DNA of 64,000 bases from assembly GCA_002069725.1 (NCBI GenBank), contig MWBW01000010.1:1046-65045 (forward strand). The letters are read 5' to 3'. Positions 3,575 to 59,034 of the stretch are shown here, one piece after another. A program made the translations under genes and the position numbers. The first letter of the stretch is position 1. Each line of letters begins with the position of its first letter. The notes beneath the pieces were generated by a model. It did not search any database and had not been told where the DNA came from. It worked only from the letters and a program-made list of their open reading frames with translations. The stretch comes from Firmicutes bacterium ADurb.Bin248. Lineage in GTDB: Bacteria > Bacillota > Clostridia > Christensenellales > CAG-138.

Positions 3575-4693
3575 TTATACGGCCGTCAATGTGCCGTTTT
3601 TGCACAAAAAGGCCGGTATATTGCTCATATCCATGCCCGCGCGTTTGAGCCCCTCGAGGCTCACGCAGGTCAAAAAGCTCTGGCAGTCGTGCATGGCCTC
3701 GAACAGCGCCCTCTGGCGGAGCTCGTCCAGCTCGCTGAGCACGTCGTCGAGCAGCAGCACGGGCGGCTCCCCGCGGTCCTCGCGCAAAAGCTCCAGCTCC
3801 GAAAGCTTCACGGAGAGCGCGGCGGTCCTCTGCTGCCCCTGCGAGCCGAAGGTGCGCACGCTGCCGCCCGAAAGCGATACGGCCACGTCGTCCCTGTGCG
3901 GGCCGGAGTTCGTGTAGCCGCGGCGGATGTCCTCCGCAACGCCGCCGTAGAGCGCGTCCGCGAACGCTTCCTCAAGCCCGCCGCCGTTCGGCTTCACGTT
4001 GGGGTCGTAGGCGAGCGCCAGGCTCTCGCGGCCGCCGGAAATTTCCCGGTGCAGGCGCGCGGCGATGGCTGCGAGCTTCCCAATGAACTCCGCGCGCCTT
4101 TGCATGATGTCCGCGCCCAGCGTGATGAGCTGCTCGTCCCAGACGTAGAGCTCGCGCCGCAGCGCCTCCCCCGTCCTCTCCTTGACGGCCTCGGGCCGGA
4201 GCAGGGCGTTTCGCTCGCGCAGCGCCTTGTTGTAGCGCTGCAGCGCGAAATAATAGGCCGGGCGGAACTGGCTCAGTTCCATGTCGAGGAAGCGACGCCG
4301 TTCGGCCGGGCCGCCCTTGACGAGCTCGAGGTCCTCAGGCGAGAACATCACAACGTTGAGCACGCCCATAAGCTCGCCGCTTCGCTCGCACGCGGCCTTG
4401 TCGATGAAGAGCTGCTTGCGCTCCCCGTCCCGCAGCTTGACCTCGACGGAGCGGCTGCCCGCGCGCGTCATGACGTCGAGCCCGACGTACGCGCCGCTCA
4501 TGCCGGAGGAAATCAGCTCGGCGTCGCGCGGCGTCCTGTGGGAGCGGCCGAAGGCGCATAAAAAAACCGCTTCGACAGCGTTGGTCTTGCCCTGCGCGTT
4601 CTCTCCGAAGATGACGTTGAGGCCGCCTCCGGGCGCGAGCCGGAGCGATTCGTAGTTGCGGAAATAATTCAATTTCAGCCGCTCAACCTGCAT
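3575..4693 (-). CDS. recF: DNA replication/repair protein RecF
   Basis: 372 aa. MQVERLKLNYFRNYESLRL...NVIFGENAQGKTNAVEAV (Walker A), SGGQQRTAALSVKL (signature) and PPVLLLDDVLSELD (Walker B). Classical recF-gyrB-gyrA order. Confidence 0.93.
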   Translation of the reverse strand: MQVERLKLNYFRNYESLRLAPGGGLNVIFGENAQGKTNAVEAVFLCAFGRSHRTPRDAELISSGMSGAYVGLDVMTRAGSRSVEVKLRDGERKQLFIDKAACERSGELMGVLNVVMFSPEDLELVKGGPAERRRFLDMELSQFRPAYYFALQRYNKALRERNALLRPEAVKERTGEALRRELYVWDEQLITLGADIMQRRAEFIGKLAAIAARLHREISGGRESLALAYDPNVKPNGGGLEEAFADALYGGVAEDIRRGYTNSGPHRDDVAVSLSGGSVRTFGSQGQQRTAALSVKLSELELLREDRGEPPVLLLDDVLSELDELRQRALFEAMHDCQSFLTCVSLEGLKRAGMDMSNIPAFLCKNGTLTAV

Positions 4694-6313: not shown

Positions 6314-7636
6314 ATGAGCGACACCATCTTCGCCCCCGCGACGCCTCTGGGCGGCGCCATCGCGGTATTGCGCATATCCGGGCCGGGCGCGCGCGCGGCG
6401 CTGGAAACCGTCTTTTTGTCGAAAGGCGCGCTCATTGCCCGGGAAATGAGGTTCGGCAGGCTCGTCGAGGGCGCGCAAGTCCTCGACGAATGCATGGCCT
6501 GCTTCTTCGCAGCGCCCGCGAGCTACACGGGCGAGGACATGGCGGAAGTTTACATCCACGGCTCCCAGGCGGTGGCGCGGCGCGCGCTGGCGCTGTTCTC
6601 CTCCCTTGGGCTTCGCCCCGCGGAGCCGGGCGAGTTCACCAGGCGCGCGTTCCTCAACGGAAAGATGTCCCTCTCGCGCGCGGAGGCCGTGATGGACCTC
6701 ATCAACGCGAGCACGGAGCGCGGCGCGAAAAGCGCCGTCGAACAGCTCGAGGGCAGCGTCGGCCGCATAGCCGGAGAGCTTGAGGAGGAGCTCCTCGACC
6801 TGCTCGCGGGCGCGGACGCGGCGCTCGATTATCCCGACGAGCTCGAGGAGGACACGCTTACGCTTATACCCGAGCGCGCGAGGGAGATCATGCTGCGGCT
6901 CGACGCGCTCATATCCGCGGGCGCGAAGGGAAGGCTTCTGCGCGAGGGGGCGGTCGTGGCGATACTCGGCATGCCCAACGCGGGCAAATCCTCGCTGTTC
7001 AACGCGCTCGTCGGGCACGCGCGCGCCATCGTGACGAGACTTCCCGGCACCACGCGCGACACGCTCGAGGAAACGGTTTCCATAGACGGCGTGCCCGTGC
7101 GCCTCGTGGATACGGCGGGGCTGCGCGAGGCGGCGGACGAGGCGGAGCAACTCGGCGTCGCACGCGCGCGGGCCGCGGCGGAGCGGGCGGACGCGCTCGT
7201 GCTCGCCTTCGACGCGGCCGGGGAGTTGGACGTCGAGGAAACGGATTTGCTCGAGGCGACGGCGGGCCGTCCCCGCGTGGCGGCGCTGTGCAAGGGCGAT
7301 TTGCCCCAGGTCCTCCGGCCGGACGCGCTCGCGCCGTACGCAATAGAAACCGTAACCGTCAGTTCCGTCACGGGCGAAGGGCTCGGCGCGCTCCGCCGCG
7401 CGCTCGCCGCGCGCCTTTTGCCCGAGGGGGAAAGCGCGCTCGTCACGAACGCCCGCCACATAGACGCGCTGATGCGCGCGCGCGACGCCCTCGCGGCCAT
7501 AGACCCGCGGGACGGCGCGGACTGCGCCGCCGTGCTGCTGCAAAGCGCCCTCTCGGCCCTTGGCGCCATCAGCGGGCGGGACGTGACCGAGGACGTCATC
7601 GAGCGCATCTTCGAGAAGTTCTGCGTGGGGAAGTAA
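6314..7636 (+). CDS. mnmE: tRNA modification GTPase MnmE
   Basis: MSDTIFAPATPLGGAIAVLRISGPGA N-terminus. G-domain VAILGMPNAGKSSLFNAL...TRDTLEE...LVDTAGLRE. Characteristic C-terminal FCVGK*. Start chosen at ATG 6314 (track ORF starts at 6287). Confidence 0.93.
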   Translation: MSDTIFAPATPLGGAIAVLRISGPGARAALETVFLSKGALIAREMRFGRLVEGAQVLDECMACFFAAPASYTGEDMAEVYIHGSQAVARRALALFSSLGLRPAEPGEFTRRAFLNGKMSLSRAEAVMDLINASTERGAKSAVEQLEGSVGRIAGELEEELLDLLAGADAALDYPDELEEDTLTLIPERAREIMLRLDALISAGAKGRLLREGAVVAILGMPNAGKSSLFNALVGHARAIVTRLPGTTRDTLEETVSIDGVPVRLVDTAGLREAADEAEQLGVARARAAAERADALVLAFDAAGELDVEETDLLEATAGRPRVAALCKGDLPQVLRPDALAPYAIETVTVSSVTGEGLGALRRALAARLLPEGESALVTNARHIDALMRARDALAAIDPRDGADCAAVLLQSALSALGAISGRDVTEDVIERIFEKFCVGK

Positions 7637-7830
7637 TAATTGACAATTGACAATTGACAATGGACAATTGACAATCAAAAACGCCGCCTGCGGGCGGGGA
7701 CGAGAGCAATTGACAATTGACAATGGACAATTGTCAATCAAAAACGCCGCCTGCGGACGGGGACGAGAGCAATTGACAATGGACAATTGACAATCAAAAA
7801 CGCCGCCACGGGCGCGATTTTTCTGTTTTC
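7637..7830 (+). repeat. Heptad-array + GC-hairpin composite repeat, array A (3 units)
   Basis: Tandem CAATTGA/CAATGGA heptads (8 exact TTGACA). Each block ends CAATCAAAAACGCCGCC-TGCG-GGCGGGGACGAGAG. The middle unit is exactly 63 bp. The third unit degenerates into a hairpin plus ATTTTTCTGTTTTC. The array starts 1 nt after the mnmE stop. Confidence 0.9.
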
Positions 7831-7941
7831 TTCATAAGCGTTGGGGATTCTGTGGAAGATGACCAAACGGAAGCCGCCGGGAACCGTCCCCACCCTTTCA
7901 AAAGGAAAATCCGCGGGCGGATGTCCTTCCCCGCCGAAGCT

Positions 7942-7976
7942 AAAAAAACGGCCTTCGCCTGTTAAAGCGAAGACCG
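7942..7976 (-). terminator. Rho-independent terminator downstream of the SH3b-sortase gene
   Basis: Minus strand reads CGGTCTTCGC-TTTAACAG-GCGAAGGCCG followed by TTTTTTT. Confidence 0.7.
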
Positions 7977-8006
7977 TTTGACTTATGCCCGATTGCCAAT
8001 TTTCAA

Positions 8007-9389
8007 TTATCCAACCGCCTTGAGCAGCATGTACATCCTTTGGTAGCTGTCGCCCGAGCTGTCCGCGCAGGTTACGATGACCATGACCTTGTCGTTCGAA
8101 GTCATGGAGCCGAGCGTCGCGCCCTTGTAGGAGGAGTTGCAGTAACCCATCATGTAGTTGATCCACTCCTGCAGCGCGGCGCCGGTGCGGTAGGACTGCA
8201 TGGCCGCCATAAGCTGGATGTTCTTGCGCGTGGTGGAGGAGCTGACGGTCGAGCTGGAGGCCTCGAAGAAGCCTACGAGCTGCCAGCGGGAAGAGCCGTT
8301 GTAGTTGATGTTGAACACGCTCGTCTTCGCGCCGGAGCAATCCTTGCCGCAGTATTCGCACTTGGCCTTGCCCAGCCACGCGTTCTGCACGTGGTGGAGC
8401 TGGTGCATGCCCGTGCCGGACTTGCGCATGTTGTGGCCGTAGATGACCGCGATGGGGTTGGTGAGGTAGCTCAGCGCGTAGAAGTAGTTGTAGCTCGAGG
8501 AGTACGCGTTGTAATAGAAGTTGCCCTTCTTGTCTATGGCGTTGCAGTAGATGGCCTGGCTGATGTTGGTGCCGTCCACCTGCATGTAGCCCCACTGGTC
8601 CGCCGAGGAACCCGTATAACTGGCATAGGAAAGCGTGCCGCCGGTCGTGCCGCTCGTGGCCCCGCCGGAAGTGCCGCCGGTGGTGCCGCCCGGCGCGCTT
8701 GAGATCTTGACGTACGGCCCGTAGATCCAGCCGGTGTAGGTCTTATAGTTGACCTTCCAGTATTTGCCGCCCGAGGTGTTGTCGAGTATGACCACGCTCG
8801 CGCCCTTGGGTATGGTGTTGCAGCCGGAAACCTTCGCGGACGAGGTGTCCGAGCCTATGCGGAAGTTGCACGTCGCGGTCGTCACGCCGTAGACGGTCGT
8901 GTTCGACGCGGTGCCGCCCGAGGTCGAGCCCGAGGTGGAGCCCGAGGAGCTTCCGCCGCCGAGGCTACCCGTGGTGCCGCCCGAGGTCGAGCCGGAAGTC
9001 GGGCCGCCGGAAGTGCCGCTTGGGGTGCCGCCGCTGAGCGAACCGCTCGTGGTACCGCCGGAAGCGCCGCCCGAAGTCGAACCCGAGGTCGAGCCCGAGC
9101 CGGAAGCGTTGAGCTTGACGTACGCGCCGTAGATCCAGCCGGTGTAGGTCTTATAGGCGACCTTCCAGTATTCGCCGCCGGTGGTGTTGTCCAGGACGGT
9201 CACGCTCGCGCCCTTGGGGATGGATTTGCATTCCGCAACCTGGGCGTAGGACTGGCCCGGTCCCGTGCGGAAGTTGCATTTCGTCGTGGTGACGCCGGTG
9301 ACCGTTTCGGCAAGCGTCGCCGCCGGCAGGAGCGTGAGCAGCACGGCCAGCGCGAGCGCGGCTGCAAGCATGCGGTGTGTTTTGTTCAT
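8007..9389 (-). CDS. Secreted protein: signal peptide + 2 x SH3b domains + C-terminal class B sortase-like domain
   Basis: Start taken at MNKTHRMLAAALALAVLLTLLPAATLAETV (RBS AGGAAAGGA upstream). There are two SH3_3-like modules (CNFR(T/I)G...IPKGASV.(V/I)LDNT.GG.YWKV.YKTYTGWIYG.YVK) separated by G/S/T linkers. The C-terminus aligns by eye to S. aureus SrtB: GYMQVDGTNISQAIY ~ GWIKLSGTSLNYPVL; VIYGHNMRKSGTGM ~ ILYGHHVGDNTM; VIVTCADSSGDSYQR ~ LSTCEDAYSETTKR, with Cys-to-Arg spacing +10 in both. Confidence 0.75.
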   Translation of the reverse strand: MNKTHRMLAAALALAVLLTLLPAATLAETVTGVTTTKCNFRTGPGQSYAQVAECKSIPKGASVTVLDNTTGGEYWKVAYKTYTGWIYGAYVKLNASGSGSTSGSTSGGASGGTTSGSLSGGTPSGTSGGPTSGSTSGGTTGSLGGGSSSGSTSGSTSGGTASNTTVYGVTTATCNFRIGSDTSSAKVSGCNTIPKGASVVILDNTSGGKYWKVNYKTYTGWIYGPYVKISSAPGGTTGGTSGGATSGTTGGTLSYASYTGSSADQWGYMQVDGTNISQAIYCNAIDKKGNFYYNAYSSSYNYFYALSYLTNPIAVIYGHNMRKSGTGMHQLHHVQNAWLGKAKCEYCGKDCSGAKTSVFNINYNGSSRWQLVGFFEASSSTVSSSTTRKNIQLMAAMQSYRTGAALQEWINYMMGYCNSSYKGATLGSMTSNDKVMVIVTCADSSGDSYQRMYMLLKAVG

Positions 9390-22101: not shown

Positions 22102-22130
22102 AGTGTACGTTCAGGGGGTGTTTTTGTCAA
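22102..22130 (-). promoter_or_regulatory. Candidate sigma-A promoter of metG (TTGACA-17-TACACT)
   Basis: On the minus strand, TTGACA is at 22130..22125, followed by a 17-nt spacer and TACACT at 22107..22102. Confidence 0.4.
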
Positions 22131-22158
22131 CAAGGGAATGTGGTAGAATAGACGAGGG

Positions 22159-22295
22159 GCAATTGATAATTGACAATTGGCAATGGACAATTGTCAATCA
22201 GGGAACGCCGCCGCGGGCGGGAACGGGACGCTTGAGAATTGACAATGGACAATGGACAATTGACAATCGGGGGAACGCCGCCGCGGGCGGGATTG
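22159..22295 (+). repeat. Heptad-array + GC-hairpin composite repeat, array B (2 units)
   Basis: GCAATTGATAATTGACAATTGGCAATGGACAATTGTCAATCAGGGAACGCCGCC-GCG-GGCGGGAACGGGACGCTTGAG, then AATTGACAATGGACAATGGACAATTGACAATCGGGGGAACGCCGCC-GCG-GGCGGGATTGCAGGG. Lies between divergent metG and the methyltransferase gene. Confidence 0.9.
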
Positions 22296-22340
22296 CAGGG
22301 ACGGCCCGCCGACGGATAAAACCCCGCGCCGAGGATTGAT

Positions 22341-27604: not shown

Positions 27605-27653
27605 CATTGGTGTTTTTTTGGACCGGATCTTTCGGCAAACAAAAGGAGACGCG

Positions 27654-28271
27654 ATGCTTCGATTATCGGATTGGCCCGAAATTAAGGAGGTTCCGTTTTC
27701 CGGCGACCTCGAAACGGACGCCGTCGCCCTGCTCGCGGCGAACGGCAAAACCGTCACGGCGGCGCACACCCCCGCCGTCGCGCGCAAAAGCGAGGCGCTG
27801 GCAAGGCGCTTCGGCCTCGACCAAGTCCGCGCGTCCCGCGCCGCGCTGCTGCACGACGTTTCCGGCGTGCTCAAACCGCGGGAAATGCTCGATTACGCCC
27901 TCCTTCGCGGCTGGAGCCTCGACGAAGCCGAGCGCAGGCACCCCGTGCTGCTGCACCAGCGCATATCGGCCGATTTTGCCAAAGACCTGTTCGGCGTAAA
28001 TGATGCGATCATTCTCTCGGCCATCGCGTGCCATACGACGCTCAGGGTAAATCCTTCCGATTACGACATGCTGCTCTTCCTCGCGGACAAGCTCGCCTGG
28101 GACCGCGCGGGCGTCCCCCCGTTCGAGGCGGCGGTAACGAAGGCGCTGGACCGCTCGCTCGCGCGGGCCTCGCTCGTCTATATCGATTACGCGCTCAACA
28201 ACGGCATGCTCCTTTTTCCACACGGGCAGCTCAATCAGGCGAAAGCCTGGCTGGAGACGGCGTGCTCTTAA
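27654..28271 (+). CDS. HD-domain phosphohydrolase, YqeK-like
   Basis: ATG 27654 after AAAGGAGA. AALLHDVSG (HD), AIACHTT, LLFLADKLAWDR. Confidence 0.6.
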   Translation: MLRLSDWPEIKEVPFSGDLETDAVALLAANGKTVTAAHTPAVARKSEALARRFGLDQVRASRAALLHDVSGVLKPREMLDYALLRGWSLDEAERRHPVLLHQRISADFAKDLFGVNDAIILSAIACHTTLRVNPSDYDMLLFLADKLAWDRAGVPPFEAAVTKALDRSLARASLVYIDYALNNGMLLFPHGQLNQAKAWLETACS

Positions 28272-28391
28272 ATCGCGTAGAACGCACTTAGAATCGGAGG
28301 ACGGAACGGGCAGCCGTCGCCCTTGTTAGGGGATGCGGGAACTGTCGCCCCGCCTGATTCTTAAACGCAGAACAGACGCTTCGGCGCCCGT

Positions 28392-30079: not shown

Positions 30080-30988
30080 TCAGACGCTCTCGTGCGGCGT
30101 GTAATAGCGCTCGTTCATGAAGCAGCGCGAGAAGCGGGAGGCCGTTTTGTTCCCCTTGCAGACCGCAAGCGTCAAATCGACCGTATACCATTTTTCGGTT
30201 TTGGAATCGTACGCGCTGTTCCAGGCGTGGTAGCCGTTGATCTTGGTGCTGTAGCCCTTGACAAGCTTGCACGGGATGCCCTGGCTGCGGCACATCGCGG
30301 CGAAAAGGGAGGCGAAATCGTAGCACACGCCTTTTTTGTTCGAAAGTATGCTCTCGGGGTTCGGCGTGTAGGCCGTGATCTGCCCGGAGATGACCTTGTT
30401 GGCGAAGTCGTAATCGTATTTGAAATTTTTTGCGATGTAATTGTAGATGGCGAGTATCTTCGCCTGATCGCCCTTGAGATCCTTGCACAGGGCGGCCGCC
30501 TTCCTGGCGATGGAGTCGTTCGCCGAGAAGGCGATTTCGGAAACGCTCCTGAGATACTGCGCATACTGCGGCGCAGCCGCGTTCGCCGCGCCCGCGGGTA
30601 CGGCGGAATCGCCCACGAGCGCCGTGAAGCTCTTCTGCGCGACGGTCACGTAGCTCGCGCCGACCTTCTTGAACAGCGCCGCGGAATAGCTGCCGCTGCC
30701 GCCGGTGAGCGCGAGCGAGAGGGTCATGCCCATTTTATAATCGTAGTAGGACCAGCTTCCGCCGTTAAAGCCCAGCCCCGCCTTCATCGCGGCGGAGGAG
30801 CCGTCGTCGTGAAAAAGGACGATGTACCCGAGCGAGGCCGTGGATGCGTCTATGCCCGCGCTCCGGCCCGCCGTCGAGAGCGAGCCGGAGGTGAGCGGCT
30901 CTCCCGCGGCGGCCGCGGGGGACGCAAGGGCGCTCAGCGCCAGGATCAGCGCGAGGGCAAGCGCGCCATGCCGGAACTGCTTTTTCAC
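30080..30988 (-). CDS. Secreted transglutaminase-like (Cys-His-Asp) protein
   Basis: GTG 30988 start (VKKQFRHGALALALILALSALASPAAAA signal peptide). Core KGVCYDFASLFAAMCRSQGIPCKLVKGY...GYHAWNSAY...WYTVDLT. Confidence 0.75.
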   Translation of the reverse strand: MKKQFRHGALALALILALSALASPAAAAGEPLTSGSLSTAGRSAGIDASTASLGYIVLFHDDGSSAAMKAGLGFNGGSWSYYDYKMGMTLSLALTGGSGSYSAALFKKVGASYVTVAQKSFTALVGDSAVPAGAANAAAPQYAQYLRSVSEIAFSANDSIARKAAALCKDLKGDQAKILAIYNYIAKNFKYDYDFANKVISGQITAYTPNPESILSNKKGVCYDFASLFAAMCRSQGIPCKLVKGYSTKINGYHAWNSAYDSKTEKWYTVDLTLAVCKGNKTASRFSRCFMNERYYTPHESV

Positions 30989-31434
30989 GTTTTCCGTCCT
31001 TTCTTTTCGCGAGGCGGCGCGCCGGGACCGGCCTATGCCTCTCAACTGCCCGAAAACGAAGAAAAAGCTCTCGTTTCGGCAACTGGCTGCCATGCGCTTT
31101 CGCGTTTAGGCCCTCTAGCTTTGCGGCCCCGCCTTTGGACGGGTGTGCCGGTTCGTCGGGATCTTCCGAACGGATATTCGATTCCGGCAACATTATAATT
31201 ACATCTACATAATATTGTCAAGTATAAAATTGTAACCGGGACGAAACGCGCCGTTTCCTGCCGAAAGCGCAGCCCCTGCGGCCGCGGCGCGGTTGCTCCG
31301 AGGTTGCGCGAGGGATGAAGCAAGGCGTCATGCGGCGCAACATTCGGCACAGGCCGTGCAATTCCACGCATTTCCGGAGGCGGAAGCCCAATTAGTTTAC
31401 AGAATATAGAAAAAAGGCGTCGAAAACGGCCTTT

Positions 31435-31544: not shown

Positions 31545-34500
31545 ATGATGAAGAGGATCGGCTTGGCCAAGCTCCTGGCGCTCGCCATGACGCTGGTGAT
31601 GGTGTTTTCGGCGGTGAGCCCGGCGCTCGCCTGCGACATCAGCCAGACGACTATTTACTATTATAGAACCGCTGCGGAGAGCGCTTATGCCTCTTACGAT
31701 GTGGCTGCGGGCACCGGCACGAGCACAACGGTCAAGCACACGCTCAAGTCCGCGCCCACGCGCAACGGCTACACGTTCACCGGCTTCAACGTGTATGTCG
31801 GCAGCAAGACGGGTACGCTCATCAAGAGCAACGCCGCACCGGGCACATCGGTGAGCATACCGCTCACGCGCACGAGCACGGGCAAGAGCTGGCCCACGAT
31901 ACATGTGGTGGCCCAGTGGAGATCCAACTGCGTCACCTACGACGTGATCTTCAAGACCGTGCTCGTGGACGGCAAGGGCGGGCAGATCGGCAAGACGGGC
32001 TCCACGCTCGGCTATGCCGACATCGAGTACCTCAACAAGCAGCCCGACACCACGTTCCCGGCGATCCCGGTGACCGATCCCGACCCGGGCTATGTTTTCC
32101 TCGGCTGGTACACCTACAACGGTGCCACCTATACGAAGGTGACGTCGTTCCCGACCAAGATCGACAAGGATTACACCTTCTATGCCCGCTGGGAGGCCAA
32201 GCCCTACGTCGAGCGCAGCGTCTACACCCTCCATTATATAGGTAAGCCTTCCGACACGACCGGCGTCGTGTGGCCCGCGGACGTCGAGAAGCAGGCGTCC
32301 CCCGTCACAACGCTGGGCGTTGCCAGCAAGGTGGGCGCGACGTTCAACGGATGGAAGCTCAACGGCACGGGCGCGAACCGGACGACCCTCGCCGCTTCGG
32401 ACTACACAAAGAGTACGGCCGCGCCCGTCATCACCTACGACGCCGCCACGGACTCCTTCATCCGCACGACCGAGTACATCGCCAACGTCCACGGCGCGTT
32501 CGTCGCGCTCGAGGACGTGATTGAAAAATACTTCTCCGTTACTTACAAAATCGACCTCAACGGCGACGGCGACTATGCCGACGCGGGGGAGACGACGCTC
32601 GCCTTCGTCGACGCCCCGGTTATGCCCACCGCGGTCAATGCCGACGTTTCGGTGCCGGGCTACACCTTCGCGGGCTGGTATAAGAACGGCTCGGCCCCGA
32701 AGCTCACGACGCTCGCCTTCTCGAACTACGATCTCGACGCCTCCCGCACGCAGACCATCCCCGCGGGCCCCGGCACCGCCAAACGCATCAAGAATTACTA
32801 TTCGATCACGCTCGTGGGCACGCTGACCAAGAAGACCTGCCAGAAGAATCTCTACAACGTGACCTACACCGGCGATAAGGCCGGGGCCACCACCTGGCCC
32901 AACGACGTTGCCAACGCCACGAGCGCGCCCTCTCTCGCCGCGGACGCGACGAAGAACGGCTATACCTTCAACGGCTGGAAGATCGGCGGCAGCTCCGTCG
33001 GCTCCATCAACTGGAGCGCGAGCTACGTCACCGTCGCGAGCCGCGAATACTACGACCCGGCGCTCGGAAAGTTCGTCACGGAGACCACGCGCTCGGTCAC
33101 GGTGGTCGGCACCTTCACCAAGTGCGCCGACATCGAGCAGAAATACTACACGGTCGTCTACAAGATCGACCTCAACCTCGACGGCGTCGCCGAGGAAGTC
33201 GCCATGCCCGGCTATACCGTGAACAACGTCACCCCGATGCCCACGGGCGTCGCGGGCGCGCCCTCCGGCATCCCCGCCGGGTACAGCTTCATCGGATGGA
33301 GCGAGTCCGCGCCGCTCGCGCAGAGCGACTTCTCCTTCGTATCCGAAGAGACGGTCCCCAGCGGCACGCCCGGCGTGGGCGCTGTGCACAAGGTCTACTA
33401 TAAGCTGGCCATTACCGGCACGCTGAACAAGCTGACCTGCCAGAAGGACCTCTACAACGTGACTTACACCGGCGACAAGGCCGGGGCCACCACCTGGCCC
33501 AACGACGTCGCCAACGCCGCGAGCGCGCCTTCCCTCGCCGCGGACGCGACGCGGAACGGCTATACCTTCAGCGGCTGGAAGATCAACGGCAGCTCCGTCG
33601 GCTCCATCAACTGGAGCGCGAGCTACGTCACCGTCGCGAGCCGCGAATACTACGATCCGACGCTCGGAAAGTTCGTCACGGAGACCACGCGCTCGGTCAC
33701 GGTGGTCGGCACCTTCACCAAGTGCGCGGACATCGAGCAGAAATATTACACCGTCGTCTACAAGATCGACCTCAACCTCGACGGCGTCGCCGAGGAAGTC
33801 GCCATGCCCGGCTACACCGTGAACAACGTCACCCCGATGCCCACGGGCGTCGCGGGCGCGCCCTCCGGCATCCCCGCCGGATACAGCTTCATCGGATGGA
33901 GCGAGTCCGCGCCGCTCACGCAGAGCGACTTCTCCTTCGTATCCGAGGAGACGGTCCCCAGCGGCACGCCCGGCGTGGGCGCTGTGCACAAGGTCTACTA
34001 CAAGCTGGCCATTACCGGCACGCTGAACAAGCTGACCTGCCAGACGACGCTCTACAACGTGACTTACATCGGCGACAAGGCCGGGGCCACCACATGGCCC
34101 AACGACGTCGCCAACGCCGCGAGCGCGCCCTCCCTCGCCGCGGACGCGACGAGGAACGGCTACACGTTCAGCGGCTGGAAGATCGGCGGCAGCCCCGTCG
34201 GTTCCATCAGCTGGAACGCGAGCTACGTCACCGTCACGAGCCGCGAGTATTACGACGTTTCTCTCGGCAGATTCGTCACGGAGACCACGCGCTCGGTCAC
34301 GGTGGTCGGCACCTTCACCAAGTGCGCCGACATCGAGCAGAAATACTACACGGTCGTCTACAAGATCGACCTCAACCTCGACGGCGTCGCCGAGGAAGTC
34401 GCCATGCCCGGCTATACCGTGAACAACGTCACCCCGATGCCCACGGGCGTCGCGGGCGCGCCCTCCGGCATCCCCGCCGGGTACAGCTTCATCGGATGGA

Positions 34501-37500
34501 GCGAGTCCGCGCCGCTCGCGCAGAGCGACTTCTCCTTCGTATCCGAAGAGACGGTCCCCAGCGGCACGCCCGGCGTGGGCGCTGTGCACAAGGTCTACTA
34601 TAAGCTGGCCATTACCGGCACGCTGAACAAGCTGACCTGCCAGAAGGACCTCTACAACGTGACTTACACCGGCGACAAGGCCGGGGCCACCACCTGGCCC
34701 AACGACGTCGCCAACGCCGCGAGCGCGCCTTCCCTCGCCGCGGACGCGACGCGGAACGGCTATACCTTCAGCGGCTGGAAGATCAACGGCAGCTCCGTCG
34801 GCTCCATCAACTGGAGCGCGAGCTACGTCACCGTCGCGAGCCGCGAATACTACGATCCGACGCTCGGAAAGTTCGTCACGGAGACCACGCGCTCGGTCAC
34901 GGTGGTCGGCACCTTCACCAAGTGCGCGGACATCGAGCAGAAATATTACACCGTCGTCTACAAGATCGACCTCAACCTCGACGGCGTCGCCGAGGAAGTC
35001 GCCATGCCCGGCTACACCGTGAACAACGTCACCCCGATGCCCACGGGCGTCGCGGGCGCGCCCTCCGGCATCCCCGCCGGATACAGCTTCATCGGATGGA
35101 GCGAATCCGCGCCGCTCGCGCAGAGCGACTTTTCCTTCGTATCCGAGGAGACGGTCCCCAGCGGTACGCCCGGCGTGGGCGCGGTGCGCAAGGTCTACTA
35201 TAAGCTCGCCGTCACCGGCACGCTGAACAAGCTGACCTGCCAGACGACGCTCTACAACGTGACCTACACCGGCGACAAGGCCGGGGCCACCACCTGGCCC
35301 AACGACGTCGCCAACGCCACGAGCGCGCCCTCCCTCGCCGCGGACGCGACGCGGAACGGCTACACCTTCAGCGGCTGGAAGATCGGCGGCAGCCCCATCG
35401 GCTCCATCAACTGGAACGCGAGCTACGTCACCGTCACGAGCCGCGAGTACTACGACGTTTCTCTCGGCAAATTCGTCACGGAGACCACGCGCTCGGTCAC
35501 GGTGGTCGGCACCTTCACCAAGTGCGCCGACATCGAGAAGGAATACTACACCGTCGTTTACCGGATCGACCTCAACCGGGACGGCGTCGACGAGATCGTC
35601 AACATGATGGGCTACAGCGTCAGCGAAGTCGAAACCATGCCCACGGGCGTGGCGGGTTCGCCCATCATCCCCAACGGCTATACCTTCGGCGGGTGGGACA
35701 AGGACGCGCCTCTGGCGAAGGGCGACTTCACCGTTGAGCGCCAGGGAACGACCCCGAGCACGCAGCCCGGCGTGGGCGCGGTGCACAGCGTGTATTATAC
35801 GCTCACCATCAAAGGCACGCTGGACAAGCAGACCCTTGCCAAGACCGTCTACACCGTTCTTTACACCGGCGAGAAAGCCGGAGCGACCACCTGGCCCAGC
35901 GACGTGGTCGACGCCGAGACCCCGCCGACCCTCGCCGCAGACGCGACGAAGAACGGCTATACCTTCAACGGCTGGAAGATCAACGGCAACTCCGCCGGCT
36001 CGCTCAACTGGAGCGCGGGCTACGTCGTGAGCACGACCGACGCGGAGTACTACGACGCGGGCCTCAAGAAGTTCGTGACGGTGACGCACAAGACCATCAC
36101 GGTCACGGGCGCGTTCACCAAGTGCGAGGACGTCGAGGAGAAATACTTCTCCGTCACCTATAAGATCGACCTCAACGGCGACGGCGACTATGCCGACGAG
36201 AACGAGACCGTCAACGCCTACGTCGAGGCATCCCCCATGCCCACCGCGGTCAGCGCCGAGCTCGCGCTCGACGGTTATACCTTCGCGGGCTGGTTCAAGC
36301 AGGGCACGGACACGAAGCTCACCGCGCTCGCCTTCACGGATTACACTTTCGACCGGACGGTGACCGTACCCGGCGGCGTGGGCACGCCCAAGACCATCAA
36401 GAACTACTACGTCATCACGCTGACGGGCACGCTGAGCAAGCAAACGCTCGCCAAGACCGACTACTCGGTGACCTACACGGGCGACAAGGCCGGCGCGACC
36501 TTCTGGCCGGCGGACGTCGTGCGGGCCGCGAGCGCGCCCTCCATCGCCGCAGACGCGACGAAGAACGGCTATACCTTCAGCGGCTGGAGCCCCGCCTCGC
36601 TCGACTGGAACGCGGGCTACGTCGACGTGCAGACCGATTCCGAGTATTATGATGCGAGCCTCAAGAAGTTCGTGACGGTGACGCACAAGACCATCACGGT
36701 CACGGGCGCGTTCGTCAAGTGCGAGGACGTCGAGGAGAAGTATTTCTCCGTCACCTACGAGATCGACCTCAACGGCGACGGCGACTATGCCGACGCGGGC
36801 GAAACCGATCCCGCATACGTCGAGACGTTCCCCATGCCTGCCTCCGTCAGGCCGGACGTTTCCAAGGACGGCTATACCTTCCACGGCTGGTATAAGAAGG
36901 GCACGTCGGAGAAGCTCAGCGCGCTCGCCTTCGCGAACTACGATTACGTGCGCACCGTCACCGTGCCGGCAGGCGCGGGCACGCCGCAGATCACCAAGCA
37001 CTATTACGCCGTCACGCTCAGGGGTTCGCTCGTCAAGAGAGTCTGCCAGCAGACCTATTACAGCGTGAGCTACACCGGCGACAAGGAAGGCGCCGCCACC
37101 TGGCCCAACGACGTTGTGAACGCAGCGAGCGCCCCGTCCCTCGCCGCCGACGCGACGAAGAACGGCTTCGACTTCACCGGCTGGAAGATCAACGGCAGCC
37201 CGGTATCCTCGCTCAACTGGTATGCGAGCTACGTGACGGTGACGAGCCTGCCCGAGGAATACGACCCCGAGAGCGGCATGTTCATCACGAAGATCCACCG
37301 CTCCATCACCGTCGAGGGCCGCTTCGTCAAGTGTCCGGATATCGAGCAGGCCTTCTACTCGGTCATTTATAAGATCGACCTCAATCTGGACGGCGTCGCC
37401 GAAGAGGTCAACATGCTCGGCTACACCGTCACGAACGTCACCAAGATGCCCACGGGCGTCGCGGGCTCGCCCGACATCCCCGCCGGCTACAGCTTCAACG

Positions 37501-41875: not shown

Positions 41876-41920
41876 CGAAGAGGCCGATCCCATATCGGCC
41901 TCTTCGAAGAATGTTTTTTG
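41876..41920 (+). terminator. Rho-independent terminator after the small B-repeat gene
   Basis: CGAAGAGGCCGAT-CCCAT-ATCGGCCTCTTCG followed by AAGAATGTTTTTT. Confidence 0.75.
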
Positions 41921-42014
41921 GAAAAAGTATAGCGGGCGGAAAGTCCGCCGCTGCGACGGCCCGAAACGGCCTTCGTTCTTAGCGAAGGCCGCTCGAATCA
42001 AATTCAATTGTCCA

Positions 42015-43001
42015 TTACTCCGTTTTCTCCCCCGGATACCACAACCCCCAGCTATGCCGTATGCCGTCCATCAGCTCCATGATGCGGATGGTCTCCGCGT
42101 GCGGCATGTCGGGACACTCGGACGCGCCCGAGAGTATGGCCTCGGTTATGGCGCGCACCTCGTATTCGTAGCCCGTGACCTGCGGCGGCCGCTCGACGCG
42201 CTCGATGAGATTGTAATCATCGTCGTAGGCGCGAAGGGACTCGAAGTTGTTGATGTTCTCTACGAGCGCGTAGCCCTTTTCTCCGTAGATGACGCCCAGG
42301 CGGTCCGTCGTGCCGAGCACGGAATAGAGGAGCGTCGCCATGCGCCCGTCCGAGTAGGTCAGGGCGATGGAGCCCTGCGTATCCACGCCAAGCTCGTTCT
42401 TGACGGCCGAACTCGTGAAGCCCGTGACCTCGCCGCCCAGTACGAGGGCCGCGAAGTTGAGCGTGTAGACGCCGACGTCCAGCAGCGCGCCGCCCGCGAG
42501 CTCCGGCTCCCTCAGGCGCGGCACGCCGGCTACCGGGTAGCCGAGGTTGCAGTATACCGCGTACACGCGCCCGATTCTGTCGCTCGCGCAGAAATCGCGG
42601 ATGGTTTTGGCCATGGGCATGTAGCGCGGCCAGATCGCCTCCGCGACGACGCGCTTCTTCTCGCGCGCGCGGGCGAGAACCTCTCTCGCCTGCTTCGCCG
42701 TGACGGTGAACGCCTTCTCGCACAGTATGTGCTTGCCCGCATCGAGGCAGGCGAGCATCTGTTCGGCGTGGCGGGAATGCGGCGATGCGACATACACGAC
42801 GTCCACGTCCGGGTCGGCGAGCAGTTCCGCGTCCGAGCCGTACGCTTTTCGTATGCCGTAGCGCGCGGCGAAGGCCTTCGCCCGCGCCGTTTCGCGCGAG
42901 GCGACGGCGTAAAGGTTTGCGTCGCCGGAGCGCGCGAGGGTATCCGCCATTTCGTTGGCGATCCAGCCCGTGCCGAGTATCCCGAAGTTCAGTTTTTTCA
43001 T
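42015..43001 (-). CDS. Gfo/Idh/MocA-family NAD(P)-dependent oxidoreductase
   Basis: 328 aa. MKKLNFGILGTGWIANEMADTL Rossmann N-terminus and HILCEKAF motif. Confidence 0.85.
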   Translation of the reverse strand: MKKLNFGILGTGWIANEMADTLARSGDANLYAVASRETARAKAFAARYGIRKAYGSDAELLADPDVDVVYVASPHSRHAEQMLACLDAGKHILCEKAFTVTAKQAREVLARAREKKRVVAEAIWPRYMPMAKTIRDFCASDRIGRVYAVYCNLGYPVAGVPRLREPELAGGALLDVGVYTLNFAALVLGGEVTGFTSSAVKNELGVDTQGSIALTYSDGRMATLLYSVLGTTDRLGVIYGEKGYALVENINNFESLRAYDDDYNLIERVERPPQVTGYEYEVRAITEAILSGASECPDMPHAETIRIMELMDGIRHSWGLWYPGEKTE

Positions 43002-50118: not shown

Positions 50119-50192
50119 GGGCAATTGACAATTGACAATTGACAATTGACAATTAAATTTATCCGCAGGGGCCGATTCCATATCGGCCCGCG
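50119..50192 (+). repeat. Heptad block C (5 x CAATTGA) plus a different hairpin, between glpK and the GlpA-like gene
   Basis: GGGCAATTGACAATTGACAATTGACAATTGACAATTAAATTTATCCGCAGGGGCCGAT-TCCAT-ATCGGCCC. The heptads are antisense relative to the operon. Confidence 0.85.
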
Positions 50193-51691: not shown

Positions 51692-51780
51692 AAAACCCTC
51701 CGATATCGGGCGGATATAGAATCCGCCCCTGCTGCGCCCGTCGGAATCCGTCCTGCGAAATCCCGTCGCGGCGCGGTTTT

Positions 51781-52130
51781 TAATTGTCAATGATCCCGTC
51801 CCGCCCGCGGCGGCGTTCTTTGATTGTCAATTATCAATTGTCAATTGTCAATTATCAATTATCAATGATCCCATCCCGCCCGCAGGCGGCGTTCCCCGAT
51901 TGTCAATTGTCAATTATCAATTATCAATTATCCCATCCCGCCCGCGGCGGCGTTCCCCGATTGTCAATTGTCAATTATCAATTATCAATTATCCCGTCCC
52001 GCCCGCGGCGGCGTTCCCCGATTGTCAATTGTCAATTGTCAATTATCAATTATCAATTATCCCATCCCGCCCGCAGGCGGCGTTCCCCGATTGTCAATTG
52101 TCAATTGTCAATTGTCAATTATCAATTGCC
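51781..52130 (-). repeat. Heptad-array + GC-hairpin composite repeat, array D (5 units; largest)
   Basis: Five CCC(G/A)TCCCGCCCGC(A)GGCGGCGTTC hairpin cores centred near 51808, 51883, 51945, 52006 and 52074 (spacings 75, 62, 61, 68 bp). They are separated by CAATTGT/CAATTAT heptad runs. This is the reverse complement of arrays A and B, so it is co-oriented with glgA. Confidence 0.92.
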
Positions 52131-57807: not shown

Positions 57808-57890
57808 GCGAACCTCCCGCGCGCGCCGCGCGCCTGCGTATCCTTATTTTAACGCATCCGCCGCCCAATTGGTAGAAGAATCTTGCAGCG

Positions 57891-57937
57891 AAAAAGGGAT
57901 GAACCCCCGGCGGAACGGTCTTGCCGGGGATTCATCC
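57891..57937 (-). terminator. Rho-independent terminator after the aldo/keto reductase gene
   Basis: Minus strand reads GGATGAATCCCC-(17 nt)-GGGGGTTCATCC followed by CTTTTT. Confidence 0.55.
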
Positions 57938-58005
57938 GGGGAGGGCCGCGAACGGCAGTCAGGCTCTTGCCGCCCGCGCGCGCGGCGGGAACCGCGGGAC
58001 GCCTT

Positions 58006-59034
58006 CTATCTTTCCCCGCGCGCGAGGTAGACCGCGTCGTAGTCTGAGAGCATTTCCTTTAGCAGGTTCGGCGTGTCCAGGCCGTACGGGCAGCGGGAAG
58101 CGCAGGCGCGGCAGCCGGTGCAAGCGTCTATCCTGTGCATGAGCACGCGGTATTCTTTCGAGAGCAGCTTCCCCGTCGGCGCGCGGCGCAGCATGCAGTT
58201 CATGCGCGCTGCCGTGGGGATGTCGATCCCGGCCGGGCAGGGCAGGCAGTAGCCGCAGCCGCGGCAGAAGTTGCCGGAAAGCTCCCGGCGGTCCCGTTCG
58301 ATCAGGGCGGCCAGTTCCGGCGTGAGCGCCAGGTCGTCCCGCGCGGCGAGGGCGAGGAATTCGTCGAGCTCGCTCTCGCGCTGTATGCCCCAGATGGGCG
58401 CGACCGTGGAGTGCGCGCGCATGAAGGCGGCGCAGGCCTCGGCGTTGGTCAGCAGGCCTCCCGCGAGCGCCTTCATGGCGATGAAGCCCATGTCCGCATC
58501 CCGGCAGAGCGCGACGAGTTCCGTTTCCTCTTTGGAGGCGAGGTAGCTGAACGGGAACTGCAGCGTGTCGTAAAGGCCGGAGGCGATCGCCTCGCGCGCG
58601 ACGGCGAGCCTGTGGTTGGTGACGCCGATGTGGCGCACGTATCCCCGGCGCTTGGCTTCAAGCGCGGCCGCGAGCGCGCTGTCGGGATCGTCCGGATCGG
58701 GGAGCGACTCCGGGTTGTGGAGCTGGAAAAGGTCTATGTAATCCGTCCCGAGCGCGCGAAGGCTCTGCTCGATGTGCGAAAGCACGGTCTTTTTATCCTT
58801 GGCCATGGACTTGGTCGAGAGGATCACCTCGCGCCGCACGCCCGAGAGCGCGAGGCCGAGCTTCTGCTCGCTGTCGGTATAGGCGTTGGCGGTGTCGAAA
58901 TAGTTGACGCCGCCCTCATAGGCGCGGCGGATGAGCCGCACGGCTTCGCCGCGCGGGACGCGCTGCACGGGCAGCGCCCCGAAGGATACCTCCGTGACCG
59001 TCAGCTCCGTGCGCCCGAGGCGGATTTTTCGCAT
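58006..59034 (-). CDS. Aldo/keto reductase with C-terminal 4Fe-4S-type Cys cluster
   Basis: Start at ATG 59034 after GGAGGAG (MRKIRLGRTELTVTEVSFGALP). YFDTANAY and DLFQLHNP motifs. C-terminal CRGCGYCLPCPAGI...CTGCRACASRCPYG. Confidence 0.85.
   Translation of the reverse strand: MRKIRLGRTELTVTEVSFGALPVQRVPRGEAVRLIRRAYEGGVNYFDTANAYTDSEQKLGLALSGVRREVILSTKSMAKDKKTVLSHIEQSLRALGTDYIDLFQLHNPESLPDPDDPDSALAAALEAKRRGYVRHIGVTNHRLAVAREAIASGLYDTLQFPFSYLASKEETELVALCRDADMGFIAMKALAGGLLTNAEACAAFMRAHSTVAPIWGIQRESELDEFLALAARDDLALTPELAALIERDRRELSGNFCRGCGYCLPCPAGIDIPTAARMNCMLRRAPTGKLLSKEYRVLMHRIDACTGCRACASRCPYGLDTPNLLKEMLSDYDAVYLARGER

Follow-up and report, generated by a model that had tools for sequence, protein, structure and literature searches.

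A stop-anchored heptad-array and hairpin repeat in intergenic mosaics of Firmicutes bacterium ADurb.Bin248 and related Clostridia

The literature on dispersed heptamer repeats goes back to about 1990 in cyanobacteria; Mazel in 1990 and Mrazek in 2007 are reportedly the sources for the short tandemly repeated repetitive (STRR) heptanucleotide repeats and the long simple sequence repeats (LSSR). Small palindromic intergenic repeats are known from Neisseria, where the Correia or NEMIS elements are co-transcribed with the flanking genes, carry promoter-like hexamers, 26-bp terminal inverted repeats and a TA target duplication, and form long hairpins that are processed by RNase III. In this study we analysed a repeat family in 64 kb of DNA from Firmicutes bacterium ADurb.Bin248 (contig MWBW01000010.1), in the following called the window. 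Each unit of the family couples an array of tandem heptads, typically CAATTGA, to a short GC hairpin, and the array usually starts at a stop codon. Correia elements resemble this family as small palindromic repeats between genes, in their promoter-like hexamers and in the long hairpins they can form, but they are not known to have heptad periodicity or stop-codon anchoring.

The closest described phenomenon is the TAACTGA heptamer repeat of marine Beggiatoaceae, cyanobacteria and some Bacteroidetes (MacGregor 2015, PMC4679880). These repeats are tandem 7-nt units in sets of 2-6, almost wholly intergenic and strongly biased in orientation to the genes; their forward strand has stops in all frames (LITDN-) and their reverse strand is open. 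The window family likewise consists of tandem 7-nt units of one favoured heptad at many intergenic sites, with an orientation bias and the same stop asymmetry. Its heptad is CAATTGA/TAATTGA and not TAACTGA, a difference of 1-2 bases; TAATTGA (LIIDN-) is found in Table 3 of PMC4679880, and the GlgA protein encoded in the window ends in ..LIIDN*. In contrast, most TAACTGA sets extend to a point 1 to a few nt 5' of a start codon and overlap the ribosome-binding site (RBS), and no coupled hairpin, tandem super-repeat or repetitive extragenic palindromic (REP) context was described for them (PMC4679880). The window family also differs in its host, a GC-rich Firmicute, and in having position-specific variants and a nearly invariant last heptad. 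The cyanobacterial STRR and LSSR (5-11 nt), as summarised in PMC4679880, are dispersed, non-coding tandem heptamers near gene boundaries with one or a few favoured heptads dominating each genome; in that summary STRR arrays are often longer, and stop anchoring or a fixed hairpin is not among the features reported. The heptamers of Nostoc are located near promoters and start codons (bioRxiv 10.1101/2022.06.06.494920).

The second kind of repeat that resembles the window family comprises the REP sequences, bacterial interspersed mosaic elements (BIMEs) and REPINs of Proteobacteria (e.g. PMC2817692). These are extragenic GC-rich stem-loops at 3' ends or within operons, combined with short motifs into composite mosaics; they form tandem clusters, vary in copy number and presence between relatives, and give long hairpins as inverted doublets, as we found at one related locus (L150). 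Genuine GTAG-type hairpins also adjoin units of the window family. The coupled hairpin itself differs from a REP in being only 14 nt long with a 5-bp stem and no GTAG, the units in the window run head-to-tail instead of alternating in orientation, and heptamer arrays are absent from the REP and BIME motifs described to date. Compared with a REP palindrome of 20-40 nt the coupled hairpin is too short (13-14 nt, CCGCC-(T)GCG-GGCGG), and CAATC, purines and (A)CG stand before it in place of a GTAG-type foot. The neighbouring hairpins G(T/C)AGGGGCGGAT..ATCCGCCC do have the REP length, and GTAG or GCAG was seen only on these separate REP-like hairpins. Extragenic multicopy mosaics were found; the window has 10 units in its 64 kb, and the fetched loci together have 55. 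The initial annotation of the window had not recognised the repeat as REP/BIME, which holds for the unit itself, but the unit lies in mosaics with GTAG-type REP-like hairpins and behaves as a BIME/REPIN component.

We concluded that the family is a fresh variant of two known and poorly understood kinds of repeat, heptamer direct repeats and REP/BIME, and no new kind of system. The heptamer repeats of Beggiatoaceae and Bacteroidetes have been known since 2015 without an accepted function, and the function of REP/BIME is still debated. New here are the stop-anchored polarity, the stops and last codons supplied by arrays, the covarying stem, a second heptad (GAATAGT) in the same architecture and the mosaics with REP-like hairpins. 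The family is a cleaner case than earlier heptamer repeats: short arrays of fixed length and strict polarity are locked to stop codons and coupled at a fixed distance to a covarying hairpin, and the heptad comes in two interchangeable 'alleles'. This narrows the choice to hypotheses that are strand-specific, acting on RNA or single-stranded DNA. Our tentative preference, held with slightly less than even confidence, is that the module may be a component of a lineage-specific BIME/REPIN-like intergenic mosaic, co-transcribed at the 3' end of genes or between cistrons and acting at the RNA level.

A covariance model (R1) built from 30 units was used for the census of the window. Exactly 10 full units (heptad array, purine tract and 5-bp GC hairpin) were found, in addition to one heptad-only array and two degenerate traces. 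By extent, three full units are located at 7637-7826 (array A), two at 22160-22290 (array B) and five at 51781-52128 (array D). The features of the family and the hairpins next to it are as follows.

7637-7676, forward strand: array A1, TAATTGA and four heptads (one of them CAATGGA), ending in CAATC
7677-7706, forward strand: purine tract and hairpin of A1; AAAAA, then CCGCC (7684-7688), TGCG and GGCGG (7693-7697), with the purine flank GGACGAGAG
7707-7769, forward strand: unit A2, four heptads, the last a TTGTCAA variant; hairpin at 7747-7760, in which G>A breaks one pair
7770-7830, forward strand: unit A3, three heptads, the altered hairpin CGCCGCCACGGGCGCG at 7801-7816 and a T-run; the A-tract, hairpin and T-tract make a terminator-like array end
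7989-8009, reverse strand: degenerate array TAATTGAAAATTGGCAATCG, beginning with the stop (8007-8009) of a convergent SH3-domain gene
22160-22220, forward strand: unit B1, five heptads (with TTGATAA, TTGGCAA, TGGACAA and TTGTCAA variants), AGGGAA, and a hairpin at 22208-22220 with the loop GCG
22232-22290, forward strand: unit B2, five heptads, the purine tract GGGGGAA and a hairpin at 22278-22290
41995-42017, reverse strand: degenerate array TAATGGACAATTGAATTTGATTC, beginning with the stop (42015-42017) of a GFO/IDH/MocA oxidoreductase gene; a terminator hairpin is next
50122-50155, forward strand: array C, 4.7 perfect CAATTGA heptads, no CGCCGCC hairpin
50165-50189, forward strand: REP-like hairpin by array C, GCAGGGGCCGATTCCATATCGGCCC, of a separate repeat family that co-occurs with the units
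51708-51733, reverse strand: REP-like hairpin GCAGGGGCGGATTCTATATCCGCCC, between array D and the RBS and start (51691) of glpK
51781-52128, reverse strand: array D, five full units with periods of 61-69 bp and a terminal partial array at 51781-51792

The covariance model matched the forward strand in array A (7662-7707, 7725-7770 and 7781-7825) and array B (22185-22230 and 22254-22300), and the reverse strand in array D (51791-51836, 51866-51912, 51928-51973, 51989-52034 and 52057-52103). It also matched the heptad-only array at 50126-50157 and, weakly, the reverse strand at the two traces (7986-8005 and 42003-42013), which bears out the degenerate copies annotated near 7985-8010 and 42003-42015. 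Counted at no more than one mismatch, CAATTGACAAT occurred 57 times in the window compared with 0.3 expected, and 0 of 100 shuffles reached as high a number. Tandem repeats were called with Tandem Repeats Finder (TRF), which gave a period of 7 in each run of array A and a super-period of 63 bp (2.4 copies, 95% identity); the middle unit, A2, is exactly 63 bp long, as had been annotated. Array A begins directly 3' of the mnmE stop (TAA at 7634-7636, TAATTGA from 7637; the mnmE product at its true start has 440 aa) and contains the eight exact TTGACA hexamers ascribed to it, at 7640, 7647, 7654, 7668, 7710, 7717, 7773 and 7787.

The dispersed composite family proposed in the initial annotation, a heptad array coupled to a short GC hairpin, was thus confirmed, and some details had to be corrected. 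The hairpin string said to end every run is exact in the first run only; the second run has GGACGG instead, with one stem pair broken, and the third has a different, terminator-like hairpin, CGCCGCCACGGGCGCG followed by ATTTTTCTGTTTTC. Recurrence of the module was borne out at 22160-22290 and 51781-52128, but array C has no CGCCGCC hairpin and a different, REP-like one follows it (50165-50189). At least 11 modules had been estimated; the census gave 10 full composite units, one heptad-only array and the two traces. Finally, not all of the modules are between genes, as glgA takes its last seven codons and its stop (..GQLIIDN*) from positions 52108-52128.

The repeat was also present in L145, an independent assembly of the same organism that is 99.87% identical over 13.5 kb. 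L145 has the array at 51.8 kb with its full five units, and the only difference is that 4 bp are deleted in one hairpin. Since this independent assembly has all five units and several metagenome-assembled genomes (MAGs) have the same family, we concluded that the repeat is not an assembly artefact. Contingency-locus behaviour or phase variation was rejected as the main explanation, since two independent samples had identical heptad numbers in all five units and the variants are position-specific.

When the window, both large arrays and four related loci were compared with Rfam at gathering and at permissive thresholds, nothing relevant was found. The best matches on the arrays had E values of 0.2-6.8, far below gathering scores. 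A full-text literature search for CAATTGACAATTGA and TTGACAATTGACAA returned no papers. The annotation as an unrecognised repeat thus stands with regard to Rfam, but heptamer direct repeats with the same coding asymmetry had already been described (PMC4679880). That the repeat is not a CRISPR array, as which the annotation had not recognised it, also held: the stretches between the hairpins, the supposed spacers, are near-identical heptad arrays with no unique spacers, the flanks are glgA, glpK and mnmE, and the only Rfam CRISPR direct-repeat match reached 17.9 bits (E 6.8). The composite pattern had zero matches in 2.9 million viral contigs, on which ground a phage origin was ruled out.

We examined the anatomy of the unit in the fetched loci, which contained 55 units; the stem and array statistics refer to 53 distinct units. 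Aligned from its 3' boundary, the array has the consensus YAAT-(TGACAAT)n-C, where n is usually 4 (range 3-6), and its modal length is exactly 29 nt. The last heptad was intact in 50 of the 53 units. Variants of the inner heptads are position-specific: 18 units have GGACAAT at position -2, and 8 have TGAAAAT at position -3. The array is therefore a conserved sequence of about 35 nt with internal periodicity, rather than a homogenised microsatellite. It is followed by 5-8 purines (AAAAA, GGGGAA or AAAGAA), CG, and a hairpin of 13-14 nt with an all-GC stem of 5 bp (CCGCC/GGCGG), a TGCG or GCG loop and a purine-rich flank.

The hairpin stem covaries. Among the 258 stem cells of the distinct units 95.7% were paired, with GC<->CG double changes in 13 cells at two stem pairs, and 0 of 500 shuffles had a covariation score as high as that observed. 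Controls with a slid stem were 36-54% paired, the exception being the -3 slide with 89%, for which only 101 cells were counted. This covariation points to a single-stranded form. The wobble and mismatch cells (two U-G and one C-A, the latter in unit A2) are too few to tell much about the strand of function. Both strands of array A fold with a z score of about -5.7. On the forward strand the internal units continue with purines (GGGGACGAGAG, GGGATGGGA) and a T-run is found only at A3; on the reverse strand, the hairpins of array A all lead into CGTTTTTGAT and were called terminator-like. Units with GGGGAA tracts have no terminator-like U-tract on either strand.

The array can be separated from the hairpin. 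In L003, L005, L012, L033, L059, L070 and L139 ordinary intrinsic terminators or hairpins of another kind come after the stop-linked array, and in L010 the RBS of the next gene does. In L005 and L006, whose permease genes are about 90% identical, the gene end and array are common and the sequences diverge completely just after the array. Hairpins of the CGCCGCC type without a U-tract are mostly found between co-directional genes, and where gene ends converge, canonical intrinsic terminators come after the same arrays (L003, L005, L059, L070 and L139). The hairpin type thus follows the gene context.

Orientation and anchoring were counted for array clusters with both neighbours called. Neighbour genes were called by codon-position GC content (filter GC3>GC1>GC2, by which some genes were missed), and several were checked manually or against Pfam. 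In 24 of 32 clusters the upstream co-oriented gene ended -17 to +14 nt from the array start, where uniform placement in the available spacer predicts 7.1; none of 200,000 simulations reached 24. Siting next to a start codon (as in the BOGUAY pattern) was seen only for the reverse arrays, which are the minority. Between co-directional genes 21 arrays were forward and 2 reverse (p=6.6e-5). Convergent spacers contained 11 arrays and divergent spacers 3, and the distance from array to next gene ranged from -2 to about 1500 nt. The rare reverse arrays lie 20-45 nt upstream of the start of the next gene, by its RBS (window 50122-50155, L093 5712-5860, L147, L148 and L150). As a rule, a unit meets the gene boundary with its array and extends into the spacer with its hairpin.

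Some of the stop codons are TAA and make up the first heptad (TAATTGA), the others are the TGA of heptad 1, 2 or 3, and stops supplied by the array give C-termini such as ..IDN*. In this way the arrays provide stop codons and C-terminal residues to housekeeping proteins. GlgA ends in QLTIDN* or QLIIDN*, a translation of the array, in five relatives with 79-100% identity; more distant GlgA proteins end otherwise. As the array-encoded end is common to five species, the overlap has persisted through speciation. In L147 glpK ends in ..WGEEAIDN*, its stop likewise coming from the array.

The CAATTGA strand contains TGA every 7 nt and, since 7 and 3 have no common factor, is stopped in each of the three frames, whereas the TCAATTG strand has no stop trinucleotide at all. 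The polarity of an array is carried by one base per heptad (CAATTG-A compared with CAATTG-T). In a relative with 85% identity (L018-21), mnmE and the gene convergent with it have a different heptad, GAATAGT, instead of TTGACAA following their stops. GAATAGT is also found after the glpK stop in L150 (5190-5240), on a contig that has a TTGACAA array as well, with a hairpin of the CGC-TGCG-GCG kind next to it. Read from the sequences, its strand asymmetry is that of CAATTGA, with stops on the GAATAGT strand and none on ACTATTC. The two heptads share AT-richness and stop asymmetry (the gene strand stopped in all frames, the other in none), and no binding word.

These observations bear on the phased multi-site protein binding suggested in the initial annotation. 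In that explanation the arrays are phased duplex-DNA sites for a nucleoid-associated or regulatory protein that reads CAATTG or AT-rich heptads and marks or insulates gene boundaries, comparable to H-NS and ToxT at ctxAB of Vibrio cholerae. The arrays are 71% AT blocks in a genome of 64% GC, the palindromic CAATTG recurs every 7 bp so that three heptads make two helical turns, and TRF found 21-bp sub-periods in some arrays. Heptad arrays as protein sites have a precedent in the TTTTGAT heptads of ctx and in SARP heptamers, as far as the accounts of these systems go; the ctxAB heptads are described there as AT-rich 7-bp tandem repeats with a TTGA core, as are the arrays here, at a single locus upstream of the -35 element, bound as duplex DNA by H-NS and ToxT, and dispersal, siting at gene ends and a hairpin are not part of that description. 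A dimer reading CAATTG would be blind to the single A or T that sets polarity, yet polarity correlates strongly with gene direction, and it could not occupy all sites 7 bp apart. Moreover, GAATAGT is not palindromic, and the coupled hairpin covaries, which points to a single strand. Duplex binding, hard to square with the one-base polarity and the GAATAGT heptad, seems to us rather improbable. The other suggestion in the initial annotation, an RNA-level or single-strand element, fits better with the compensatory changes in the stem and with a strand polarity tied to gene direction.

The TTGACA hexamers had been annotated as -35-like, and the arrays even contain TTGACA-N17-GACAAT. One could thus regard the unit as a portable sigma-70-type promoter with a 5' stabiliser hairpin, in which four heptads and one base supply both hexamers, the purine tract is the discriminator, and transcription starts 1-3 nt before the GC hairpin to give a transcript with a protective 5'-terminal stem-loop. 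A consensus scan found a 10/12 match at 17-bp spacing in every full array, compared with 0.2-0.6 expected, and by hand derivation from the 7-bp periodicity only four heptads, among them TTGACAA and TTGATAA, reach 10/12 at this spacing when repeated. The modal array of 29 nt, the last heptad (-10) intact in nearly all units, the clustering of variants in the 'spacer' heptads and a constant 6-8 nt from -10 to hairpin are in line with such a promoter. However, the arrays are placed relative to the upstream stop and not to the downstream start. They are more frequent in convergent than in divergent spacers, the reverse of what is expected of promoters, and many are followed by an intrinsic terminator within 12-17 nt. 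The reverse arrays abut the RBS of the next gene yet point away from that gene, three-heptad arrays have no -35 element, and GAATAGT arrays have the same architecture and no promoter similarity. The position of the arrays at stops, in convergent spacers and by terminators argues against promoter function despite the sequence match, and we consider it doubtful that they serve as promoters. The arrays do create strong false promoter predictions.

Units lie in mosaics with other repeats. The REP-like hairpins form a second repeat family, G(T/C)AGGGGC(C/G)GAT-loop-ATC(G/C)GCCC with a GTAG or GCAG foot, and were found in the window at 50165-50189 (+), 51708-51733 (-) and 41880-41905, and in L002, L003, L013, L022-24, L028, L061, L106 and L112. 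In L022-24 such a hairpin abuts the mnmE stop, the TAG stop being part of GTAG, and L061 has three tandem copies about 99 bp apart. An inverted-repeat element of the GGGGACGGTT type also occurs in the mosaics. It is about 230 bp long and consists of two consecutive inverted-repeat hairpins of about 85 nt, bounded by four GGGGACGGTT(C/T) motifs (L003 917-1160, L008 2501-2721, L022 5360-5538 and L124 11356-11577, with a short version at 7836-7895 of the window). It is often just downstream of heptad-hairpin units, has no Rfam match, and could be a miniature inverted-repeat transposable element (MITE) or a structured RNA. The GGGGACGGTTC motif, a distinct element in related loci, was not enriched in the window (1 compared with 1.5 expected).

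At the glgA-glpK and glpK-G3P dehydrogenase junctions the relatives L150, L148 and L147, with about 80% identical GlgA, have differing architectures. The glgA-glpK spacer of L150 (3425-3700) is one palindrome of about 250 nt, ordered array>hairpin>REP...REP<hairpin<array, with a minimum free energy of -148 kcal/mol (z -13.4); no target-site duplication was seen by eye beside it. L148 has a forward array and a reverse unit, and L147 (JAXGNN010000001.1) has one unit and a duplicated gene-end/array junction. All window arrays are head-to-tail, while in L148 and L150 the inverted halves form a single palindrome; such halves, forward or reverse, appear to be what is left of palindromic mosaics. Positions 5577-5969 of L147 contain 2.9 copies of a 134-bp unit made of the last ~40 nt of glpK, the heptad array, the hairpin and a REP-like hairpin, which indicates amplification by duplication or unequal recombination that dragged flanking sequence along. 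L149, whose GlgA is 79% identical, has no TTGACAA array at the glgA end and glgA-glpK junction; its 50-nt spacer (3967-4016) contains GTTCACC GTTCACC, another two-copy heptad. Compared with window positions 57887-58012, the related MAG locus L008 (1426-3067) has an extra AraC/GyrI-like gene that ends in ..KAMDN* inside a heptad array, and about 600 bp of GGGGACGGTT-type repeats that are not at the orthologous site in the window.

A serious rival is a purely selfish element filtered by selection: a REPIN- or MITE-like palindromic repeat without host function, spreading by itself or by a RAYT-type transposase acting on the GTAG hairpins. Polarity would then reflect only which insertions are tolerated, since the forward orientation truncates a gene harmlessly and the reverse adds a long C-terminal extension; for TAACTGA, tolerance has been argued in the same way (PMC4679880). 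The L150 palindrome with arrays at both termini, the adjoining GTAG-type hairpins, the fast turnover at orthologous junctions with absence from some relatives, the flanking coding sequence carried along in tandem amplification, and the AraC-like gene and unit in L008, neither of which is at the orthologous window site, all argue for it. A tolerance filter leaves unexplained the 21:2 forward bias in truly intergenic DNA and the siting at the stop, and the glgA overlap has been kept through about 20% protein divergence. Narrow array lengths (3-6 heptads, mode 4), with a nearly invariant last heptad and variable inner ones, are the opposite of a decaying or slipping microsatellite, and two samples of the same organism have identical arrays. 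No transposase turned up, though no search aimed at transposases was made, nor did a target-site duplication come to light. Apart from the self-complementary CAATTG, terminal inverted repeats are missing from the arrays of the window; the L150 mosaic is a full palindrome. We regard this selfish origin as possible, and on balance unlikely.

The reading that we tentatively favour is that of a co-transcribed element. As the boundary is usually the stop of the co-oriented upstream gene, a unit would be located in the 3' untranslated region (UTR) of that gene or in the intercistronic spacer transcript. The sequences show the anatomy, polarity, stop anchoring, stem covariation, mosaic context and persistence of the units in several species, while their transcription, processing, stabilisation and termination, like every other functional effect on RNA, are inferred. 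In the transcript the array would be AU-rich and weakly structured with a stop in each frame, and so would end translation in any frame and keep the terminating ribosome about 30 nt away from the hairpin. The GC stem-loop, mostly without a U-tract, could then be a barrier to 3' exonucleases and/or a partial terminator, as for REP elements. We propose this role by analogy with REP325 of E. coli, a terminator and stabiliser in a 3' UTR (bioRxiv 10.64898/2026.03.23.713779). Neighbouring or inverted arrays may pair into long AU-rich stems that enclose the hairpins, because CAAUUG is self-complementary, and such stems would be possible processing sites. Copy number would shift by unequal recombination or duplication between arrays, rather than by clean transposition of the unit.

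Several points weigh against a co-transcribed RNA element. For an exonuclease barrier, a stem of 5 bp is short. 'Back-up stops' are expected to be only weakly selected, and the all-frame stops could be a mere orientation filter beside coding ends (cf. PMC4679880). A last heptad that hardly varies (intact in 50/53) and a modal array of 29 nt suit promoter geometry at least as well as a spacer. Turnover at orthologous sites is rapid (1-5 units, forward or reverse halves, a different heptad, absence in L149 and L022-24), as a selfish element would also show. In addition, the loci were gathered by pattern matching rather than by a whole-genome census.

A more far-reaching explanation is that of a dedicated single-strand nucleic-acid-binding factor with a 7-nt footprint, reading AU-rich heptads at stops and, mirrored, at RBSs as punctuation of gene boundaries. 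It would control termination or ribosome release, mRNA processing or the uncoupling of cistrons, and TTGACAA, GAATAGT, TAACTGA and STRR would be convergent or related instances of one post-transcriptional system. We consider this speculative and very unlikely.

The best named relatives of the window MnmE and GlgA are MAGs of Clostridia/Christensenellales. Scanning species-representative genomes for the array-hairpin junction yielded three matching MAGs, namely Clostridia bacterium JAPXSN01 (ten loci), Christensenellales bacterium JAXGNN01 (on a 1.6-Mb contig) and a Bacillota bacterium; five other matches were single palindromes and were rejected as chance. Among the matches listed for a metagenome scan with the heptad-only pattern were GC-rich contigs with the full module. 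The module is thus carried by uncultured GC-rich (60-65%) Christensenellales-like Clostridia of gut and digester. The arrays break short-read contigs, and L146 ends within one.

The matches listed for the heptad-only scan also include contigs L025-L144 of 24-56% GC from many unrelated taxa, with (TTGACAA)n arrays that are often inverted pairs around a short spacer. Stop anchoring was weak in these taxa outside the GC-rich clade (12/46 compared with 5/46 in the reverse control), and their arrays were therefore not pooled with the present family and were treated as a separate phenomenon. Among the listed matches they adjoin other heptad arrays (AGTTGAT, CTACACT and TCACTTT). Examples are L029 and L073 on one 413-kb human-gut contig, L034, in which GGGGACGGTTCTC directly follows the array, L076, L077 and L117. 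Two loci of one human-gut species of about 47% GC recur in dozens of samples.

Regarding the single arrays of the window, the degenerate array at 7989-8009 is followed by the intrinsic terminator of the SH3-domain gene (7946-7979). B1 is located in the divergent metG/methyltransferase spacer, 3' of an extended -10 promoter-like TGgTAGAAT (22140-22148), and at the orthologous site MAG JAPXSN01 (L015) has one unit where the window has two. This spacer (22102-22148) also contains a promoter-like TTGACA-17-TACACT on the minus strand, and both promoter-like sites are conserved in L015. Being downstream of the plus-strand site, array B would sit in a 5' leader. Array C is antisense to both of its minus-strand neighbours, glpK (stop at 50198) and G3P dehydrogenase (start at 50102), and its 5' end is 20 nt from the start codon of the latter, beside the RBS. 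The heptads of array D are TTGATAA, then TTGACAA, and its loops alternate between TGCG and GCG.

Apart from the repeat family, a c-di-GMP-I riboswitch (67 bits) was detected at 31075-31159 (-), upstream of a transglutaminase-like gene (30080-31093, -) and divergent from the gene (31545-40460, +) of a 2971-aa protein with Listeria-Bacteroides repeats (Flg_new). A skipping-rope RNA (RF02924, 58.7 bits) was found at 28290-28361 (+), directly 3' of an HD-domain gene (27618-28271). GC-rich tandem repeats with periods of 24-168 bp at 60334-60684 are located inside an open reading frame of 567 aa (59100-60803, -) with an N-terminal zinc ribbon, and presumably encode a repetitive low-complexity region of the protein.

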